Positions 1 to 21,085 of a stretch of DNA of 34,244 nucleotides are shown here, piece after piece (position 1 is the first letter of the stretch; each line of letters starts with the position of its first letter). The DNA is from Nanobdellota archaeon. Lineage in GTDB: Archaea; Nanobdellota; Nanobdellia; Pacearchaeales; GW2011-AR1. The notes beneath the pieces were generated by a model. That model did no database searches. It saw nothing but the letters and a program-made list of their open reading frames with translations, and was not told the origin of the DNA. The position numbers and the translations under genes are program-made. The stretch spans positions 1 through 34,244 of the forward strand of contig JAUYDD010000067.1 in assembly GCA_030704765.1 (NCBI GenBank), given 5' to 3'.

Positions 1-141
1 AAATTTCTGAGCGCACCCAAAAAACTTCTGAAAGTTTTTTAGTGTGCTCCAAAATGCCTTCTCTTTCTATCCATTAAAATAGATAGGTATGAGAAGAGCA
101 TTTTGGACATCTTAAAAGATGAAGTTTATTTTCCGACATAA
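1..141 (-). repeat. Modular multi-hairpin intergenic element, copy A (truncated by window start)
   Basis: Hairpins aaaaaactt-ctga-aagtttttt, ccaaaatgc..gcattttgg and catctt-aa-aagatg; ends ttccgacataa like the copy at 34244 (tctcgacataa at 2423); 17-40 is identical to 8417-8440. Confidence 0.85.
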
Positions 142-867
142 TCAATTTTCTTCTAATATTTTTTTCAATTTAAAAGTAAAATTTATTGTTCGTTTTATTA
201 GTTTGAATCTTGACTTAAATCCGAAATTCCAAGCACTATGGCCATGCAATCTCTTCCCAAAATATACTGGAAACCTAATTACAATGTAACCATTGGATTT
301 AGCAAGATAATAGGCATATAAGTCGAATGAAAAATCTTCAGGAGGGTTTTTTATTAATCTTAAAAAATCTTTATGGAAGATATTTGGTTGAGCATTTATA
401 TCATATAAAAATTTCTTTAAAACCAAGGTTTCAAAAATGGACATTCCAAAAGTGAAGAATCTGTCAGAAAAAGATCTTCCATATCTTTTTCCTTTAATAA
501 ATGTCTTCTGAGGATTATCATTGGATTTTATCATTTCAAAAGCTTTAATTGTGTCTTTTGGATCTGTTTGTAAATCTGCATGTGTATGGCAAATATATTT
601 TCCTTTTGCAGATGAAAATCCTTTATATACTGCAGCACCATAACCTGGTATCTTTTGAAAAACTGACCTAGCAAAAGGATACTTTCGTCTTTTTAACAAT
701 TTTTTCAATACTTCTTTTGTATTATCATTTGAATTATTATCAACAAGGATCAATTCTGTTGTCTTTAATAAATTCCCATTTAAAATCTCCTTGAATTTAT
801 CTAAAAGAAAAGGCATATTTTCAGCTTCATTATAACACGGGATTATTATAGATAATTCTTTTTTCAT
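142..867 (-). CDS. GT2 glycosyltransferase, polyprenol-phosphate (DPM-synthase-like) type
   Basis: SIIIPCYNE, LVDNNSND, GYGAA, HADLQTDP, IKGKR, SFDL motifs. Confidence 0.9.
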   Translation of the reverse strand: MKKELSIIIPCYNEAENMPFLLDKFKEILNGNLLKTTELILVDNNSNDNTKEVLKKLLKRRKYPFARSVFQKIPGYGAAVYKGFSSAKGKYICHTHADLQTDPKDTIKAFEMIKSNDNPQKTFIKGKRYGRSFSDRFFTFGMSIFETLVLKKFLYDINAQPNIFHKDFLRLIKNPPEDFSFDLYAYYLAKSNGYIVIRFPVYFGKRLHGHSAWNFGFKSRFKLIKRTINFTFKLKKILEEN

Positions 868-15855: not shown

Positions 15856-15939
15856 TCAAACTTATTTGAATCTGAGCGGCTAACATAGGTTCAAAGACTA
15901 TTCCAGAATAAAATCATATTTGTTTTGCAAATATGATTA

Positions 15940-16023
15940 TGCGGGAGATAGGATTTGAACCTATGAAGGCACTAAGCCAGCAGATTTTGAGTCTGCCCCT
16001 TTTGACCACTCAGGCACCCCCGC
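15940..16023 (-). tRNA. tRNA-Leu(CAA)
   Basis: GCGGGGG..GCAGA-CTCAAAA-TCTGC, long variable arm, ATAGG-TTCAAAT-CCTAT-CTCCCGC-A. Confidence 0.95.
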
Positions 16024-16045
16024 ACATAAAAAATCTAAGAAAGAG

Positions 16046-16068
16046 ACATATAAAAAGCTTTATAAACC
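16046..16068. promoter_or_regulatory. Back-to-back archaeal TATA boxes for the divergent tRNA-Leu and 5S rRNA
   Basis: atataaaaa (minus-strand TTTTTATAT) ~30 bp before tRNA-Leu; aagc-tttataaa ~29 bp before 5S. Confidence 0.6.
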
Positions 16069-16087
16069 CTTATAATCAAGGATATAT

Positions 16088-16201
<114 letters not shown>

Positions 16202-16235
16202 TTTTACTTTCTTTTTTATAAGAAAGTTGTTTAAG

Positions 16236-16436
16236 ATGATAATACCTGTAAGATGCATAAGTTGTGGAAAACCAATAGGACACCTATGGGAAGAATTCAA
16301 AGAAAGAGTTGAAAAAAATGGAGAGGATTCTAAAAAAGTTTTAGATGAATTAGGATTAGAAAGATATTGCTGCAGGTCTATATTCTTAGGGCAGGTTGAT
16401 ACATTGGAATTAATCAATAAATTCAAGAAATTCTAG
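16236..16436 (+). CDS. rpoN: RNA polymerase subunit N (Rpo10)
   Basis: MIIPVRCISCGKPIG..LDELGLERYCCR. Confidence 0.97.
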   Translation: MIIPVRCISCGKPIGHLWEEFKERVEKNGEDSKKVLDELGLERYCCRSIFLGQVDTLELINKFKKF

Positions 16437-16500
16437 ATTAATTTTATATAGTTGGAGTTTTTGAAGGGAGCATGGTCTAAGGTTAAGGTCATTGATGCTG

Positions 16501-16521
16501 AGGTCTGGGGAGCGGTTAACT
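16501..16521 (+). repeat. Cassette-boundary direct repeat, copy 1
   Basis: tctggggagcggttaact 16504-16521 is identical to 18764-18781; aggtctggggagc is shared with 19676-19688. Confidence 0.85.
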
Positions 16522-16587
16522 ATCTATTTTGGGAATCGTTTAACTAAGAGGTTAAAAAATTGCGTTTGCAAAAAGAGTTATCTTTCT

Positions 16588-16809
16588 TTATTTAAAGAGC
16601 CTTTTTAACTTATTCATAATCCATTTTTTAGTCTCTTTATTACTCTGAATAACCCAAATAATAATTGTTATAATTACTACTAAAGAAATTAATGGGAAAA
16701 GGTTTACTTCGAAAAAAGTTGTGCCTGTTACTCGAACAATTGCCCCTAAAATAGATAAAGAAATTACTAATTTTAATGTGTTTAGCAAATCTTTTTGGAT
16801 AGTTTTCAT
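16588..16809 (-). CDS. Small 2-TM membrane protein
   Basis: 73 aa, two hydrophobic helices, basic tail; starts 17 bp after the HNH gene. Confidence 0.7.
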   Translation of the reverse strand: MKTIQKDLLNTLKLVISLSILGAIVRVTGTTFFEVNLFPLISLVVIITIIIWVIQSNKETKKWIMNKLKRLFK

Positions 16810-16826
16810 TTTTTTGCGTTAATTGT

Positions 16827-18395
16827 TTAGCTTTGTCTGTTTTTTCCTTCATTTAATTCCTTTTGGATTTGCTCTGGAAAATCTGAATCCTTCCATCCTA
16901 ATTGTTCTTTGATTTGATGTATCCCTGATTCCCAGTTATAAGATTCTATTAGGTTATGATTAAATTTCCCTTTAACACTTTCTCTATTGTTTATATCATG
17001 AATTTTTTTATCCATAGGAACTAGGTTCCATATTTCATTATTATATTTATTCCTATCAATATGATGAATAGAAATATTATCTAGAATTTTCTGCCCTTTT
17101 TTCTTCAAATAATCTTCATATTTCCAAACATGGTATAATTTTCCGCTATTTTTAAACACTAAACGGCCTTCTTCGTTAAATCTGAGATTTTGCTTTTGTC
17201 CGGAATCTATTAATGCTTTTTCTTTCCAGTAAGCTTCAGTTCTTTTTTCCAATTCTTTCTCTTTTGTCTTTAATTCTTTCTCCTGTTCCAATAACTCTTT
17301 CCTTTGAATTTTTAATTTATCTTCTGTCTCTTTATTCTTATTTCTTAATCTTATTAATTCTTGTTCATATTTTTCTTTTATCTCCCCTTTAGAATGTCTT
17401 ATTTTTTCTTCTAAATCTTTAATTTCATTTAATCTATTAGCTTTTTGACTTTCTAATTTTTGAATTTCTTTATTCCCCCCTTTGATATCTTCATTTATTC
17501 TTTCTTTCTCCTCACCTAACTTTATTATCTCATTTCTTATATCCTTAACTTTTTCTTCTTCTTTCTGTCTTTCTTTTTTGACTTTACCCCTTTTCCACTT
17601 TTCAATATATAGATAACTTAGTAAGACAACAATAAAAATAATAACTCCAAAAATAGATAGTTGTTTTATTCTCTCTTCCCTCTCTTTTTGTAATTGCTCT
17701 GAACTCTTTAAACAGATTCCTTCCTCAAATCTATCTGACTTACATTCCCATTCGCACATATATGCTTCTCCAACTTCTTTAGTTGAAGGCATTAGGCATG
17801 TTTGATTCTTACAATTAAGTTTTCCATAATGTTCGCAAGAAATTATTTTATCTTTTCCACAAAAACCTACTATATTACATATTGATGAACCGCACTCATT
17901 ATCTGAAATGCATAATGAATTATCATCTAAACATTGTTTTCCATTTGGACAAGTTCTACAAACTTCTTTTTGTTTTTCTACATTTTTATACTCAGAGGAT
18001 ACTTCTGGTTCAATCAGGGTATAATCTAAATCCGTTATACCAATATAGCTATTAAGTTGTGTGTTCACATGCCCATCGTCATATCTATCAGAATCTCGAG
18101 GTTCAACTTTAACTTCAACGCTTTTTACTTCATCAAGTCCAAACCATGTCGAAACAACTTTGTAGTCTAATCTTACTGTAACGGGTATAGTCAAGTTATT
18201 ATATACAGTAAACGAAAGATGACTATTCTCTACCCAAACAAGTTTATCCATCTCCAAATTAGCTCCCACAAAATCGCCATCAAAATAAAACCACTCTTCC
18301 TCTTGAGAATAGGATTCATTAATTTTATATTGACAAGCAGAAACCGAACCTATCAAAAAGACAAACAAAAATAAAATTACAATTAAATTTTTCAT
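16827..18395 (-). CDS. Single-pass membrane protein: signal peptide, Cys-rich ectodomain, TM, coiled coil, C-terminal HNH endonuclease domain
   Basis: MKNLIVILFLFVFLIGSVSA; 14 Cys before TM LSIFGVIIFIVVLLSYLYI; K/E-rich coil; SIHHIDRNKYNNEIWNLVPMDKKIH matches the HNH_3-type pattern. Confidence 0.8.
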   Translation of the reverse strand: MKNLIVILFLFVFLIGSVSACQYKINESYSQEEEWFYFDGDFVGANLEMDKLVWVENSHLSFTVYNNLTIPVTVRLDYKVVSTWFGLDEVKSVEVKVEPRDSDRYDDGHVNTQLNSYIGITDLDYTLIEPEVSSEYKNVEKQKEVCRTCPNGKQCLDDNSLCISDNECGSSICNIVGFCGKDKIISCEHYGKLNCKNQTCLMPSTKEVGEAYMCEWECKSDRFEEGICLKSSEQLQKEREERIKQLSIFGVIIFIVVLLSYLYIEKWKRGKVKKERQKEEEKVKDIRNEIIKLGEEKERINEDIKGGNKEIQKLESQKANRLNEIKDLEEKIRHSKGEIKEKYEQELIRLRNKNKETEDKLKIQRKELLEQEKELKTKEKELEKRTEAYWKEKALIDSGQKQNLRFNEEGRLVFKNSGKLYHVWKYEDYLKKKGQKILDNISIHHIDRNKYNNEIWNLVPMDKKIHDINNRESVKGKFNHNLIESYNWESGIHQIKEQLGWKDSDFPEQIQKELNEGKNRQS

Positions 18396-18688
18396 TTCCC
18401 TTTCGCCTCTTGTTTGATTTTATTTAAAACTTCTTTTCTTGCCTCTTGTATGTCTTTAGGAATTTCTTTCCATTCAAACCTTTCTTTTACTTCATTTTCC
18501 GTAAGTTTTAGATTAATATAGTCTTTGATATAATAATCATTCATTTTATCATCAATGTTATCAATAAATTCTTGTATTGCTTGTTTTATTACAGCAGATT
18601 TATCAATTCCTTGTTCTTTCGCTATTTCAATTATCCTTTTGAGAGTTTCATTTTCAAGATAAATTCCAACTAGTTTGTTTTTTACCAT
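18392..18688 (-). CDS. Ribbon-helix-helix (CopG-like) DNA-binding protein
   Basis: KLVGIYL strand + ENETLKRIIEIAKEQG + DKSAVIKQAIQEFI; ATGA overlap with the HNH gene. Confidence 0.8.
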   Translation of the reverse strand: MVKNKLVGIYLENETLKRIIEIAKEQGIDKSAVIKQAIQEFIDNIDDKMNDYYIKDYINLKLTENEVKERFEWKEIPKDIQEARKEVLNKIKQEAKGK

Positions 18689-18754
18689 ATTAATTAATAT
18701 TAATAATTATTAGCAATTATTATATTTAAATCTTTCGGCTATTTACAAAAATAA

Positions 18755-18781
18755 AAATCCTGTTCTGGGGAGCGGTTAACT
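18755..18781 (+). repeat. Cassette-boundary direct repeat, copy 2
   Basis: aaatcctgttctggggagcggttaact. Confidence 0.85.
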
Positions 18782-18819
18782 GAGAGAAGTTTTATAATAC
18801 TCAATTTCTAAGAATCATT

Positions 18820-19671
18820 ATGAAAGCAACAGAACTTTATGCAAAATTGGAAAAGAATTTCATAAAGCCCGGCTTAAGTGATGAATGGGCTGAGCATATG
18901 GAAGAAGTAAAAGATTTTCTTAGTGATAACTTTAAAAAAAGGTCTATGGGATTAGTTTGCGATAATTCTCAACAAATTATTAGAGTTTATACTGCGGTAT
19001 TTCCAACAGACAGAGTAATGAAATATATTTTAGCTCAAAGAACAGAAGACGCTATGCTTTTTGTCCATCATCCTTCTATTTGGGATATTACTAAGGCTCC
19101 TCAAGTTTTTCAACAAATGAACCAAGATTTATTAAAAAAATTTAAAGCAAGAAAAATTTCAGTTTATAACTTACATGTTCCACTAGATAATTATGGTGAA
19201 TATTCAACTAGTCTAACTTTAGCTAATGCTTTAGAAATAAAACCAAGAAAGCCATTTGCTCCTTATTTCGGAGCTTTATGTGGAGTATTTGGAAAAACAA
19301 AATTAAGAACAACTGCAGATTTATCAAGGAAATTTAAAGAAACAGTGGGTCATAGAGTTAGTTTATATCAATATGGAAGTCCAAGTATTAAAGACGGAGT
19401 TGTCGCAGTGATAGCTGGTGGTGGAAATAATGTTGAAATGTTACAAGAAATTGCAAAAGAAGGCGTAAATACATTTGTAACTGGAATAACTGCATTAAAT
19501 TCTCATTCACAAAAAGCTCATGATTTTGCCAAAGAACATAAGATAAATGTTTTAGGTGGAACTCATTATTCTACTGAAAAATTTGCATGTATTGCTATGT
19601 GCGATTATTTCAGAAAATTAGGATTAAAAAGTCAATTCATAGATGGAAAACCTGGTTTAGAAGATTTGTAA
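18820..19671 (+). CDS. NIF3/DUF34 dinuclear metal-centre protein
   Basis: SMGLV, FVHHP, YNLHVPLD, IAGGG, TFVTG, GGTHYSTE. Confidence 0.88.
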   Translation: MKATELYAKLEKNFIKPGLSDEWAEHMEEVKDFLSDNFKKRSMGLVCDNSQQIIRVYTAVFPTDRVMKYILAQRTEDAMLFVHHPSIWDITKAPQVFQQMNQDLLKKFKARKISVYNLHVPLDNYGEYSTSLTLANALEIKPRKPFAPYFGALCGVFGKTKLRTTADLSRKFKETVGHRVSLYQYGSPSIKDGVVAVIAGGGNNVEMLQEIAKEGVNTFVTGITALNSHSQKAHDFAKEHKINVLGGTHYSTEKFACIAMCDYFRKLGLKSQFIDGKPGLEDL

Positions 19672-19688
19672 ATCCAGGTCTGGGGAGC
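19670..19688 (+). repeat. Cassette-boundary direct repeat, copy 3
   Basis: aaatccaggtctggggagc, 17/19 identical to 18755-18773; overlaps the NIF3 stop codon. Confidence 0.75.
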
Positions 19689-19858
19689 ACATCTGCCTAT
19701 TTTTGCAGAGTTTAACTTAACCTAATTTTAACCTGTAAATTTTTTATCCCTGATAAAAGTCCAAAAAATAATCTCCTGAGGTTTATGAAAGATTATCTAA
19801 CTTCTTATTATAAATAAATCACAATCAGGTTTATATAGGATGAATTTATACTTTTTTC

Positions 19859-20791
19859 ATGAGAGAAAAATTATTTGGCTGTTATGTTGCAATTGTTACT
19901 CCTTTTCAAAAACAAGGAGATAGAGTGAACCATCCTATAAATTATGATTCTTTGGATAGATTTGTTAACCATATAATTCTCGAAGGGGTTGATGGTGTTG
20001 TTGTCTCTGGTTGTACTGGTGTTGATTCTCTTCTTTCTCCAGATAAACAGGTTGAATTAGTTAAATATGTTAAAAGTAAATTTGGACACCTAACAAAAGT
20101 GATTGCTGGAGATGGAGCTAATTCAACAAGAGAAGCAATAGAACTTGCTCAAAGAATGGAAGAAGAAGCTGAAGTTTACACTCACCTCTCAATATCTCCT
20201 TATAAGAACAAGCCTTCTGATAGGGGAATAATAGAGCATTTTACAACTATTGCTGATAATATCGAAGGTAAATTGATATTATATTCTGTGCCTAGCAGAA
20301 CTGGAGGAAAAGGAATTCATCCTGATGTTGCTGAAAAATTAGCAGAGCATAAAAAGATTTATGCTATTAAAGAAGCATCTAGAGATTTGGAAAGGATAAG
20401 AGAGACTATTCATAAGACAAAGGACAAGAAATTCTCTGTTTTATCTGGTGATGATAATCTCACATATCAAATAATTGAAGCTGGTGGAACTGGAGTTATT
20501 TCTGTTGCTGGAAATATTGTTCCAAGATGGATTTCTAGTTTAACCAAGTTAGCTTTAGATAAAAGTTATGATGATGCTAGTAGTTTGCAGCTTAAATTAA
20601 ATTCTTTGTATCAAGCGCTTTTTCCAAAAGCTGTTTTAAATAAAAATCCTTCACCGAATCCAGTTATGTGTTATTATGCATTGAATAAAATGGGTTTTGA
20701 AGTTGGTATTCCAAGATTGCCTTTAACAGAAGGAGAGCCTTATGAACAAGAAAGAATGGATAAGGTATTATTAGATTTAGGACTTAGTTGA
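19859..20791 (+). CDS. DapA/DHDPS-family class I aldolase with divergent active site
   Basis: AIVTPF, GCTG, LYSVPSRTG, AIKEAS, LSGDD, GVISVAGN, PRLPL. Confidence 0.88.
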   Translation: MREKLFGCYVAIVTPFQKQGDRVNHPINYDSLDRFVNHIILEGVDGVVVSGCTGVDSLLSPDKQVELVKYVKSKFGHLTKVIAGDGANSTREAIELAQRMEEEAEVYTHLSISPYKNKPSDRGIIEHFTTIADNIEGKLILYSVPSRTGGKGIHPDVAEKLAEHKKIYAIKEASRDLERIRETIHKTKDKKFSVLSGDDNLTYQIIEAGGTGVISVAGNIVPRWISSLTKLALDKSYDDASSLQLKLNSLYQALFPKAVLNKNPSPNPVMCYYALNKMGFEVGIPRLPLTEGEPYEQERMDKVLLDLGLS

Positions 20792-20818
20792 TTTAAAAAA
20801 TAAAATTTCATTAGATAT

Positions 20819-21085
20819 TCATTCTTTTAACTTATACCTATTTCTATATCCGCATTCCTTACACTGAATGACTCTAAATCCCTTTTTTATTCTTATTTCA
20901 GAATTAACTGCATTAAAAAATGAGCAGCATTTTTTGCAGAATTTCTTTTTATAATCACCAAGTTTAATGTTTTTTGACATTGCAAGTTTTTTAATATTTT
21001 TGATTTCTTTTTCATTCGGAAAATTAGAAAAAACATCTTTGATTTTTTCCTGTATTTCTTCCCTTGAGAGATTTTGTTTTTTCAT
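20819..21085 (-). CDS. rnp4: Ribonuclease P protein Rpp21 (component 4), short form
   Basis: KKKFCKKC..EIRI..IQCKECG..RY zinc ribbon. Confidence 0.82.
   Translation of the reverse strand: MKKQNLSREEIQEKIKDVFSNFPNEKEIKNIKKLAMSKNIKLGDYKKKFCKKCCSFFNAVNSEIRIKKGFRVIQCKECGYRNRYKLKE

Follow-up and report, generated by a model that had tools for sequence, protein, structure and literature searches.

Several described systems couple events at the cell envelope to an attack on DNA. In Zorya, ZorAB with its long coiled-coil tail acts together with ZorC/D, and in Kiwa KwaA is paired with KwaB; both are membrane-anchored anti-phage systems in which an envelope sensor is coupled to DNA-targeting effectors. 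Classical Mrr restriction enzymes are soluble and recognise modified DNA, while polymorphic-toxin and contact-dependent HNH toxins, as well as surface competence nucleases, combine a nuclease with export signals and cell-surface domains. Among the archaea of groundwater and sediment, the ultra-small DPANN group accounts for a large share, and to our knowledge almost nothing is known of how its members handle viruses, foreign DNA or hosts.

Here we analysed an operon of three ORFs, all on the minus strand, in a stretch of 34,244 nt (the window) from contig JAUYDD010000067.1 of a Nanobdellota archaeon (Table 1). A gene for a ribbon-helix-helix (RHH) protein is followed by the main gene and by a small hydrophobic ORF, each recovered where the initial annotation of this DNA had placed it. 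The translational coupling proposed there for the first two genes takes the form of an ATGA common to the RHH stop and the main gene start, a 4-nt overlap that gives the window a bicistronic layout with the small gene first. The domain order claimed for the 522-aa protein also holds: signal peptide, Ig-like beta-sandwich, 13-Cys module, one transmembrane (TM) helix, K/E-rich coiled coil and I-HmuI-type HNH domain. This architecture is more than a chance arrangement, because it recurs in hundreds of related proteins with invariant Cys and HNH residues, and the alignments argue that it is conserved and under selection. The core of the operon is two genes, RHH and the membrane HNH protein, with the third gene optional, and this two-gene core is accessory DNA of DPANN archaea of the Nanoarchaeota class. 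At about even confidence we infer that it encodes an autoregulated nuclease that is tethered to the membrane, senses events at the envelope and belongs to a defence or conflict system.

Table 1. Positions of the operon and its surrounding elements in the window
Feature	Position (nt)	Strand	Basis or remark
18-nt direct repeat, copy 2	18764..18781	+	18/18 identical to copy 1
Putative BRE/TATA-type archaeal promoter (cgaaaga + tttaaata)	18723..18737	-	about 35-42 nt before RHH ATG
AT-rich palindromes between TATA box and ATG: TAATAATT-6-AATTATTA; ATATTAA/TTAATAT	18689..18722	-	candidate RHH operator
RHH (CopG-like) protein, 98 aa	18392..18688	-	Pfam RHH_1 match
Main gene, 522 aa	16827..18395	-	
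Predicted signal peptide, aa 1-20 (MKNLIVILFLFVFLIGSVSA)	18336..18395	-	hydrophobic window 3-21; position conserved ahead of invariant C-Q-Y
Variable Ig-like beta-sandwich, aa 21-145, predicted extracellular	17961..18335	-	AF2 strands 24-146
13-Cys module, aa 146-230, predicted extracellular, membrane-proximal	17706..17960	-	conserved Cys
TM helix, aa 244-264	17604..17666	-	hydrophobic window 246-264, mean hydropathy 2.7
K/E-rich coiled-coil-like linker, aa 265-400, about 135 aa, predicted cytoplasmic	17196..17603	-	composition and weak heptad signal
HNH (His-Me finger) domain, HNH_3/I-HmuI type, aa 405-470	16986..17183	-	motif aa 444-466, nt 16998-17066
Two-helix C-terminal tail (W.SGI..LK.QL ... 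DFPEHIQKEI)	16830..16985	-	conserved; helices at model residues 91-102 and 111-124
Hydrophobic ORF, 73 aa	16588..16809	-	17 nt past main gene stop; one strong and one weaker hydrophobic segment
Degenerate third repeat copy	16528-16545	+	78%; after copy 1
18-nt direct repeat, copy 1 (TCTGGGGAGCGGTTAACT)	16504..16521	+	part of a longer repeat unit found elsewhere in the genome

The likeness to Zorya and Kiwa lies in the working principle only, namely a membrane part, a long cytoplasmic coiled coil and a nuclease or DNA-binding effector near the entry site. There is no sequence relationship, and PADLOC-DB v2.0.0, which covers such systems, held no system model that fits the three proteins; matches were at coiled-coil level only (JetC, LmuB and LeoBC, E 6e-4 to 0.02), with none for the 73-aa ORF. 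Zorya and Kiwa also differ from the window system in that the latter has neither motor nor ion channel, combines sensor and nuclease in a single polypeptide, carries a new, large ectodomain of disulfide type and belongs to a DPANN archaeon. Compared with secreted and surface HNH toxins the topology is opposite: theirs are delivered outside or into another cell, whereas the window's nuclease is predicted in the producer's own cytoplasm, paired with a cytoplasmic RHH protein rather than an immunity protein.

The topology rests on several features of the main protein. Its hydrophobic 19-mers are found at residues 3-21 and 246-264, and the 15 residues that follow the second carry a net charge of +5, compared with 0 ahead of it. 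Exactly 14 Cys are present, at positions 21, 146, 149, 155, 162, 168, 173, 179, 187, 195, 200, 214, 218 and 228, with none beyond, which matches the earlier count of 13 clustered Cys plus one after the signal peptide. Since 14/14 Cys precede the TM helix, positive charge follows it and the partner RHH is without a signal peptide, a single-pass (type I) topology is predicted, with the ectodomain outside and the HNH domain inside; the previously proposed outside sensor and inside nuclease are thus borne out by hydropathy, charge and Cys placement.

Within the ectodomain, the distal sandwich is variable (mean pairwise identity 27%, versus 57% for the Cys module). Its AF2 model reached pLDDT 80-95 in most 10-residue blocks, and structural matches were limited to generic sandwich folds (best Z 8.1). 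The presumably rigid Cys module is the most conserved part of the protein: across 22 aligned sequences 12/13 of its Cys never vary, and C218 is kept in at least 90%; C21 is also invariant in the alignments, and the AF2 pLDDT is below 50 over residues 159-219 of the module. Pfam contained no family matching any of 22 ectodomain family members at a useful level, and a PDB sequence search gave no match. An ectodomain profile search recovered 304 representative clusters (50% identity), 263 of them at E<=1e-10, with the window protein as a full-length member (E 8.7e-78). Members share a signal or anchor, C-Q-Y, the beta-sandwich, the 13-Cys module (C..C.....C......C.....C.S..CN....C ...) and a TM helix. 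Behind this helix an HNH motif follows in at least 124 of the 159 members collected as matches of the first homolog search plus the best 150 of the profile search. The ectodomain is an unnamed family, without a name in Pfam, NCBIfam or PADLOC.

Behind the TM helix, residues 265-400 consist to 75% of K/E/R/Q/L/I and are devoid of Pro. Profile matches of this linker were only to coiled-coil parts of Leu_zip, JetC and SMC, all below cut-offs, and both its length and its sequence differ among homologs. The subsequent HNH motif, HHIDRNKYNNEIWNLVPMDKKIH at residues 444-466, is far more constrained: H444, H445, N457, L458 and H466 are invariant in 19 aligned sequences (24-60% identity to the window's) and in a set of 13, with H444/H445/N457/H466 presumably representing the catalytic His and the Asn/His of the metal site. 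With Pfam HNH_3 (PF13392), whose cut-off is 24.8 bits, the window protein reaches 18.0 bits (E 0.0022), and 20.2 bits in a second run; relatives exceed the cut-off at 25.4, 27.0, 32.9 and 30.3 bits, and 9/20 homolog matches carry precomputed PF13392 annotation. An AF2 model of aa 398-522 (pLDDT 88.1, pTM 0.81) displays a beta-beta-alpha fold; of the solved structures, I-HmuI comes closest to it in VIA-align (Z 5.0, rmsd 3.3 over 73 aligned residues). Among 20 chains with Z>=2, we take 15 to be HNH/His-Me nucleases by entry title and what is known of these structures, and the BFVD matches are headed by phage HNH endonucleases (best TMq 0.55). As Foldseek of the model against PDB gave nothing at E<=0.001, we assign the C-terminus to the HNH fold with moderate confidence, in keeping with the beta-beta-alpha terminus originally suggested, for which the confident model, I-HmuI and the phage HNH matches all speak.

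The protein thereby shares with I-HmuI-type homing endonucleases and nickases (PF13392; PDB 1u3e) the beta-beta-alpha core and the H-H..N..N-L..H motif. It differs from them in its lack of a NUMOD or HTH DNA-binding module (Pfam), in the location of its gene outside any intron, intein or phage, and in the fusion of the HNH domain behind signal peptide, ectodomain, TM helix and long coiled coil. Neither a NUMOD/HTH/AP2 module nor a conserved target-gene site marks it as a homing endonuclease, and a true intein-borne HNH of the same genome, in GyrB, looks different. One may also ask if the HNH fold no longer cuts, the protein being instead a membrane-tethered DNA-binding or signalling protein, either a ToxR-type one-component sensor or a chromosome-to-membrane anchor. 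The receptor-like layout, the co-encoded DNA-binding RHH protein and the helical, basic C-terminal tail, which is absent from a short 'HHKD..NLEE' subtype, would suit such a role. We nevertheless judge it highly improbable, considering that the catalytic-type H-H, N and H persist across sequences so divergent, and that the other partners of the ectodomain (Mrr_cat, UvrD, HNH) are enzymes, not regulators.

The 98-aa RHH protein matches RHH_1 (PF01402) at residues 7-43 with 26.9 bits, above the Pfam cut-off of 20.5, and is thus a family member. Its homologs have a mean column identity of 64%, and the C-terminal half is conserved as well (..DYI.L.I.E......IPKDI..ARKEVLNKIK). An RHH homolog lies immediately upstream of the main gene in 14/33 distinct loci, with a 4-nt overlap at the junction in 13 of these and a 4-nt gap in one, and the exact word TTTAAATA occurs at a similar distance ahead of the RHH start in 14/18 upstream regions compared. 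The RHH partner initially proposed is accordingly a conserved, overlapping upstream gene behind a conserved putative BRE/TATA promoter. The palindromes between TATA box and ATG are a lead only as an RHH operator, because a genome of 29% GC contains many AT-rich palindromes. RHH precedes 13/26 HNH fusions versus 0/5 ectodomain-only proteins, an HNH gene is directly downstream in 7/7 genomes with strong RHH matches (E<=1e-30), and in two of these, both genomes other than the window's, the gene downstream of the same RHH subfamily encodes a free HNH_3 protein, of 68 and 77 aa (42.7 and 30.0 bits). RHH is hence a dedicated partner of the HNH domain, not of the ectodomain; as 13/26 HNH fusions are without it, it cannot be essential to the membrane protein.

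These features recall type II toxin-antitoxin systems with RHH antitoxins (CopG/RelB/ParD), which likewise have a small RHH gene first, an overlap and a strong promoter with palindromes, and of which the RHH and 68-77-aa HNH pair resembles a minimal version; the CopG-like autoregulator ORF56 of pRN1, overlapping a downstream enzyme gene, is presumably a similar case. The operon could then be a selfish addiction module, in which the RHH antitoxin binds and neutralises an HNH toxin and the only role of the membrane and ectodomain part is to keep the toxin in place or stable, with no sensing of the outside. Antitoxin-first order, DNA-binding N-half and highly conserved C-half, as in RHH antitoxins, agree with this, as do weak NCBIfam matches of the RHH protein to RelB-like antitoxin and ORF56-like families (all below family cut-offs), the toxin-antitoxin size of the free HNH_3 proteins and the patchy distribution. 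We consider it unlikely. The partner in the window is a 522-aa membrane protein rather than a small soluble toxin, RHH is missing in half of the HNH fusions, and our literature search found no description of HNH toxins with RHH antitoxins. Furthermore, an addiction module leaves unexplained the large ectodomain, conserved across 304 clusters with 12 invariant Cys and 13 at >=90%, and its pairing with other effectors.

Such pairings are found in two forms. In three distinct loci the ectodomain gene is preceded by a gene for a tail-anchored protein with Mrr_cat (PF04471), its own coiled coil and a C-terminal TM anchor, and in one locus ectodomain and UvrD helicase form a single fusion protein, while HNH is encoded by its own gene downstream. 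The Mrr_cat variant has a nuclease-coil-membrane geometry like that of the window protein, but is not the window's own form. The search for homologs with swapped effectors that the initial annotation had called for was consequently positive, and effector swapping of this kind is typical of conflict systems.

The 73-aa ORF fared differently and is not a conserved third component. It has only one relative in a search of 5.8 billion proteins (88% identity, 65 aa). About 6/30 family loci have a small hydrophobic ORF after the main gene, versus 1 of roughly 85-93 for other genes, and those of different family loci are barely alike. Of the three-gene co-occurrence anticipated earlier, the RHH and main gene pair therefore stands, while the small ORF does not.

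Carriage of the family is patchy: 16/400 good genomes of the phylum, spread over 16/280 genera, with 0/36 same-genus and 0/24 same-order genomes. In addition, the copy in one genome is split and a close relative in another is intact. With its variable sandwich, the main gene behaves as an accessory gene. Some loci lie among defence or toxin-antitoxin genes, including type I R-M, AbiLi-like (E 1.4e-86), PD-(D/E)XK/Cas4-like and DUF2779, along with ORFs whose translations look PIN-like and RelE-like by eye. However, neighbourhoods are mixed and many of the 104 neighbour ORFs from 16 loci are housekeeping genes (ribosomal protein L3, MetRS, proteasome, topoisomerase), so there is no consistent defence island; the window operon itself is surrounded by rpoN, 5S rRNA, NIF3 and a DapA-like gene.

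DPANN archaea depend on hosts for nucleotides, and membership of this group, the predicted placement of the nuclease beneath the membrane and the variable, presumably surface-exposed ectodomain would also accommodate a nuclease for DNA uptake or nucleotide scavenging, with the ectodomain docking at the host contact site and the tethered HNH cutting imported host DNA. The above carriage is, however, too rare for a core function in symbiosis, and genes for transporters, pili or competence are not among its conserved neighbours. RHH pairing and swapped restriction-type effectors are easier to reconcile with conflict than with nutrition. We regard a nutritional role as very unlikely.

The direct repeats said to bound the operon are present and identical over 18/18 positions, but do not constitute a clean target-site duplication. 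Genome-wide, 11 places match the 18-nt repeat with <=3 mismatches, versus 0 for a reversed control pattern, and at 6/6 other places inspected the motif lies just beyond gene 3' ends; the flanking repeats thus belong to a family of intergenic repeats spread across the genome and are not peculiar to the cassette. It is quite unlikely, in our estimation, that the cassette is cargo of a mobile element or provirus, whose role would be superinfection exclusion or that of a homing-type endonuclease, with the repeats as att-like or target-duplication sites. The two flanking copies are indeed identical while the 9 other genomic copies each diverge from them by 2-3 mismatches, a related motif occurs on both sides of the cassette in two other loci, and tRNA genes adjoin in the window and, as inferred from tRNA-like ORF translations, in two loci. 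A tyrosine recombinase gene is near the cassette in L010/L017 (Pfam), one RHH-HNH pair is near an ORF start that by eye resembles a phage-integrase SAM-like domain in translation, and HNH_3 is of homing-endonuclease type, as in the GyrB intein. On the other hand, genes for an integrase, a transposase or replication are absent from the 2.26-kb cassette, and the motif, which occurs between genes in general, is missing around most other loci, where relatives occupy unrelated sites without repeats. IMG/VR viral contigs gave no relative (0/80 pattern matches), source-run contigs show no joint that skips the cassette, and homing is hard to square with a membrane tether.

Returning to the membrane-tethered nuclease of a conflict system, we infer each functional step, DNA cleavage, trigger, RHH repression and defence role alike. 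The RHH-HNH pair would be the old core, resembling a type II toxin-antitoxin module, in which RHH would act on its own promoter as repressor of the operon and might restrain the nuclease as well. The nuclease would have become tethered beneath the membrane, with a recognition domain in front of it on the extracellular side. The trigger may be an event at the envelope, for instance a virus adsorbing, DNA being injected or another cell making contact, the signal passing through the TM helix and a probably dimeric coiled coil, whereupon HNH would cut DNA close to the point of entry or, as abortive infection, that of the cell itself. The small membrane protein, where present, may be a partner or inhibitor. 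More tentatively, the protein may be a 'receptor nuclease', whose hypervariable Ig-like/disulfide-knot ectodomain recognises a virus or foreign cell surface and directly gates the cytoplasmic HNH via the dimeric coiled coil. This would amount to a tethered toxin-antitoxin-like RHH-HNH pair with exchangeable nuclease (HNH, Mrr, UvrD+HNH), and among known defence systems it would be the first that is DPANN-specific; if true, it would represent innate-immune signalling across the membrane in one polypeptide.

Aggregated, the data describe a widespread, undescribed operon design that probably serves in conflicts with invading DNA; in the literature we found no description of its layout of outside sensor, TM helix, coiled coil and inside nuclease. 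The minimal pair of RHH and 70-aa HNH points towards a toxin-antitoxin-like class, of which we found no description in the literature either. Even on a cautious reading, a new domain family with a conserved promoter and operon is available for annotators to name. If the ectodomain truly gates the nuclease, the operon would offer a simple, testable model of prokaryotic transmembrane immune signalling, and also a source of modular, membrane-localised nucleases.

The cassette consists of three genes, whose positions are collected in the table together with the elements around them, and is carried by an archaeon of low GC content (about 29%). The end of the 98-aa ORF and the start of the 522-aa ORF have an ATGA in common, and the 98-aa product is a ribbon-helix-helix (RHH) protein (Pfam RHH_1, 26.9 bits against a cut-off of 20.5). 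The 522-aa protein displays two hydrophobic segments, at residues 3-21 and 246-264, the latter with a net charge of 0 before and +5 after it, and exactly 14 Cys, one at position 21, thirteen within 146-228 and none past residue 228. Residues 265-400 are devoid of Pro and composed to 75% of K, E, R, Q, L and I, and the HNH motif HHIDRNKYNNEIWNLVPMDKKIH occupies residues 444-466. Hence every element listed in the initial annotation (ORFs, ATGA, Cys, hydrophobic segments and motif) was recovered in place, and prediction splits the protein between an outer and an inner part. The coiled coil is about 135 residues long, which would correspond to a length in the order of 20 nm were it helical throughout. 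In the adjoining RNA gene row, probably spurious ORFs at 15933-16166, 16149-16283 and 16163-16426 overlap with the RNA genes or with rpoN.

Features of the cassette and its immediate surroundings (window positions)
Feature	Position	Strand	Remarks
5S rRNA	16088-16202		70.9 bits; just before rpoN
tRNA-Leu(CAA)		minus	in a row with 5S rRNA and rpoN (15939-16436)
rpoN	16236-16436		Pfam RNA_pol_N, E 1.2e-25
Small ORF	16588-16809	minus	73 aa
Main gene	16827-18395	minus	522 aa ORF
RHH gene	18392-18688	minus	98 aa ORF
TTTAAATA	18723-18730		followed by AT-rich palindromes

The initial annotation had let its nuclease reading depend on a beta-beta-alpha-metal fold at the C-terminus, and such a fold is indeed present in the model of the last 125 residues (pLDDT 88.1, pTM 0.81). 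An exhaustive structure aligner ranked I-HmuI first (Z 5.0, rmsd 3.3, 73 aligned residues), and 15 of the 20 chains at Z>=2 are HNH/His-Me nucleases, among them I-PpoI, Cas9 HNH domains, McrA, IscB and VcaM4I. Phage HNH endonucleases fill nearly all top rows of the comparison with predicted viral structures (BFVD), the best match having TMq 0.55, rmsd 3.4 and E 6.2e-4. Foldseek against the PDB returned nothing at E<=0.001, and a PDB sequence search with the HNH-part sequences gave weak matches to Cas8f-HNH (E 0.062) and I-HmuI (E 0.59). Pfam HNH_3 scores 18.0 bits in the window protein against a cut-off of 24.8, which several relatives exceed, and H444, H445, N457, L458 and H466 are invariant in 19 HNH sequences. 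Considering the fold matches to HNH nucleases, the C-terminus does not lack the fold; model and alignment thus show an HNH fold with catalytic-type residues kept, and service of this domain as a non-catalytic tether or regulator appears very improbable. The sole other HNH_3-like match in the same genome is the homing endonuclease motif HHIDFNKSNN..ENII....H of a GyrB intein (Intein_splicing, E 6.6e-21; L089:2380-5559, contig C36).

The 522-aa protein belongs to a large family without a name. A word-indexed search recovered 19 other clusters, mostly as full-length matches at 26-47% identity, and a profile of 22 ectodomains reached 304 representative clusters at E<=0.001, of which 263 remain when the limit is tightened to E<=1e-10 and 118 when it is set at E<=1e-30. 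Among 159 proteins, made up of the word-search matches and the best 150 of the profile matches, the pattern H-H..N..N-L..H follows the TM helix in 122 by regular expression and in 2 more by Pfam. No Pfam, NCBIfam or PDB sequence match provides a name for the ectodomain: a PDB sequence profile search yielded 0 matches at E<=1, Pfam gave just 3 matches on the 22 members, each in a single member and at E>=0.009, and a feature-based Atlas search produced no usable match. Twelve of the 13 clustered Cys, C21 and the next Tyr are invariant in the 22 ectodomains. Mean pairwise identity is 27% in the sandwich, 57% in the Cys module, 23% in the coiled coil, 36% in the HNH part and 38% in the tail; thus, the domain distal to the membrane varies, and the Cys module is rigidly kept. 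The ectodomain model is confident for residues 24-146 only, an all-beta sandwich, with pLDDT < 50 for the Cys-rich part (residues 159-219). The sandwich matches (VIA-align, wide) are generic Ig-like domains only, such as factor XIII and transglutaminase barrels, GH2 domains and HAP2 domain 3, with a best Z of 8.1, a level that is common according to the tool.

The named carriers of the family gene are MAGs of Nanoarchaeota, Woesearchaeota and Pacearchaeota. Of 400 good-quality genomes across the phylum, 16 contain it, corresponding to 16 of 280 genera, and it was not found in the 36 same-genus and 24 same-order genomes searched; the counts include one unpublished genome (G452, locus L049), on which alone no claim rests. 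In one genome (G097, L053) the gene is split into ORFs of 145 and 252 aa, while the near-identical copy in a congener (G209, L048) is intact at 469 aa, and the split copy is probably a pseudogene. Together, the patchy distribution and this split copy form the pattern of an accessory gene, with gains and losses. The family gene also occurs in a public MAG labelled 'uncultured Methanosarcinales archaeon' (G110; L013, the same locus as L044), whose sequence was placed by genome search in the class of the window, so that the label or binning of that MAG is doubtful. The window's own genome encodes a further Cys-rich, C-terminally anchored surface protein (L089:6210-7499), which contains CGGPCSPC repeats as well as a poly-Gly stretch and has no sequence relationship to the ectodomain family.

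Homologs with swapped effectors, which the initial annotation had named as a check, were found in two forms. At three distinct loci (L015, L041 = L042 and L047 = L070) the ectodomain protein stops soon after the TM helix and is directly preceded, at a spacing of 0-3 nt, by a 345-361-aa protein. This protein begins with an Mrr_cat restriction-endonuclease domain (24.6, 27.6 and 23.8 bits; cut-off 21) and continues with a long charged coiled-coil-like stretch and then a C-terminal TM anchor. This variant shares the nuclease-coil-membrane geometry of the HNH fusion, however with another nuclease and in reverse order. A 73-85-aa protein with a coiled coil and a zinc ribbon precedes the Mrr_cat gene in two of the three loci (L015:3061-3282 and L070:2176-2433), and may be a third component of the variant. 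In the other form (L068), a 1195-aa protein joins ectodomain and TM helix to a UvrD-type helicase (PF00580, E 1.2e-46), followed by a separate classical HNH gene (PF01844, E 1.1e-9). Furthermore, PD-(D/E)XK genes (PDDEXK_1, DUF2779) adjoin the family gene at L011, L013 and L069. The nuclease and helicase partners of the ectodomain are thus shown to be exchangeable. Single extracellular modules with interchangeable DNA-acting enzymes are a feature of conflict systems.

The operon is conserved, and the strongest functional clue comes from its first gene. Following removal of near-duplicates, 36 distinct family loci remained, 33 of these with at least 330 nt upstream; an RHH gene of the same subfamily lies directly upstream of the family gene in 14 of the 33, overlapping it by 4 nt in 13 cases and separated from it by 4 nt in the remaining one. 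A fifteenth RHH locus (L031/L032) has a truncated RHH gene with a broken 5' end. The upstream RHH accompanies 13 of 26 verified HNH fusions, as compared to 0 of 5 complete ectodomain-only proteins. Mean column identity is 64% for the RHH versus 39% for the adjacent HNH domain, and conservation takes in the C-terminal half, DYI.L.I.E...IPKDI..ARKEVLNKIK, past the DNA-binding unit. When the phylum sample was searched with the RHH alignment, seven genomes contained a match at E<=1e-30, and in all seven an HNH gene follows immediately 3': four ectodomain fusions, one divergent signal-peptide/HNH protein of 382 aa (L077) and two free HNH_3 proteins, one of 68 aa (42.7 bits) and one of 77 aa (30.0 bits). 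The RHH is thus a dedicated partner and tracks the nuclease, membrane-bound or not. The minimal pair of RHH and free HNH_3 resembles a type II toxin-antitoxin module in size and layout, and we consider it unlikely that the system as a whole is a pure addiction module. Prediction of a complex between the HNH C-terminus and the RHH returned a score of 0.02, against a mark of 0.32, which is evidence neither way.

Upstream of the RHH gene, the word TTTAAATA follows GAAAG-like bases in 14 of 18 regions compared, mostly about 32 nt from the ATG. We infer that this region is a BRE/TATA promoter, giving rise to a short-leader or leaderless operon transcript, and possibly an operator. Relatives maintain a conserved TAATTGTTAYCATTTAATATCAT-type region, and the window region 18689-18737 is a candidate RHH target. 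A scan of this archaeal DNA for bacterial-type promoters and terminators found 16, not above the shuffles (mean 13.2).

The 73-aa ORF at the end of the operon contains one strong and one weaker hydrophobic segment, and has a single relative (88% identity, 65 aa) in the protein collection. Searching for ORFs on the same strand of <=110 aa, with a hydrophobic 19-mer and a start at -8 to +60 nt from the stop, we found one behind the main gene at 6 of 30 loci of the family (the window itself, L018, L031, L034 and, weakly, L045 and L049), versus 1 of roughly 85-93 other genes >=200 aa of the same loci. All of the four good cases belong to the RHH type of locus. The sequences are hardly similar, the best pair sharing 33% over 43 residues. 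The proposal of a small membrane protein as a regular third gene hence does not hold; given the few loci and dissimilar sequences it is an occasional accessory rather than a defining part.

The 18-nt direct repeats said to bound the cassette are exact copies, yet part of a genome-wide family: 11 copies at <=3 mismatches occur in the same genome (e.g. window 16504, 16528 and 18764, and L003-L008), versus 0 for a reversed control. The family reads GGGGAGCG(T/G)TTAACT, with a longer unit ..GAYGCTGAGG TCTGGGGAGC.., and at 6 of 6 other places inspected (L003-L008) the repeat lies just past the 3' end of a gene, often in tandem and inside a longer shared unit. At L034 and L024 the cassette is flanked, in intergenic DNA, by the related word GTTAAACGCCCC, which is absent around most loci. 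Rfam holds no family at the repeat, possibly a REP-like element of this lineage or one associated with terminators. A role as general RHH operator or att site was rejected, as the repeat is absent around most loci and is 3' intergenic and often tandem in its own genome. The window copies are the only identical pair, and duplication or recombination at the site is therefore possible.

That the cassette is cargo of a mobile element we regard as unlikely. The sequencing runs recovered for the cassette were the probable source run, of DNA, and two sisters of it, with no RNA run among them. No joint skipping 16521-18764 was present in the contigs of these three, all examined at contig level, where rare variants lie below resolution. 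In the source run the cassette occupies a separate 2512-nt assembly-graph contig (16335-18846) of depth equal to its flanks, one end of which falls within rpoN and the other at the beginning of NIF3. This separate contig, together with low-depth variant contigs at 18783-19037 in the same run, suggests strain variation at the cassette borders. A search for an empty site via NIF3 found this gene in only 2 of 36 same-genus genomes, with other neighbours and no motif. None of 80 pattern matches obtained with the ectodomain in IMG/VR was a relative, and the ectodomain model had no convincing match in BFVD (TMq <=0.29). In G003 (L066) an rpp21/Rpr2-like gene directly follows rpoN on the same strand; the window has this gene at 20819-21085, in opposite orientation and separated from rpoN by 4.4 kb that include the cassette, NIF3 and a DapA-like gene. 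Compared to G003, window 16236-21085 is a local rearrangement.

The 104 neighbour ORFs examined from 16 loci are mixed. Defence-type neighbours comprise a type I methyltransferase, an AbiLi-like ATPase (E 1.4e-86), a type II REase, Cas4-like nucleases and integrases, with PIN-like and RelE-like ORFs (judged by eye) adjoining some loci, and housekeeping neighbours include ribosomal protein L3, MetRS, proteasome and topoisomerase genes. As the context is mixed and the window's own neighbours are housekeeping genes, it lends weak support for defence. None of the three cassette proteins corresponds to a PADLOC model.

RHH and HNH_3 are already known as parts. In the literature we did not find descriptions of the ectodomain family, its fusion via TM helix and coiled coil to a cytoplasmic nuclease, or an archaeal RHH-HNH toxin-antitoxin pairing, although a pair of this kind could be listed in supplementary tables of predicted defence or toxin-antitoxin families; the passages on HNH or ribbon-helix-helix in PMC3632139, PMC10440598, PMC13092281 and PMC12259885 contain nothing bearing on the architecture or the pair. 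We file the system with membrane-associated or toxin-antitoxin-like nuclease modules, and that it represents a truly new type of transmembrane immune receptor is doubtful. The system could also act in DNA uptake or scavenging, which we find rather improbable, and the small remaining probability goes to something else. The reading we favour, with about even confidence, is an envelope-sensing conflict or defence system, in which the ectodomain would recognise something at the cell surface, the coiled coil would hold and gate the nuclease, the nuclease would cut incoming or self DNA, and the RHH would autoregulate the operon and possibly restrain the nuclease.
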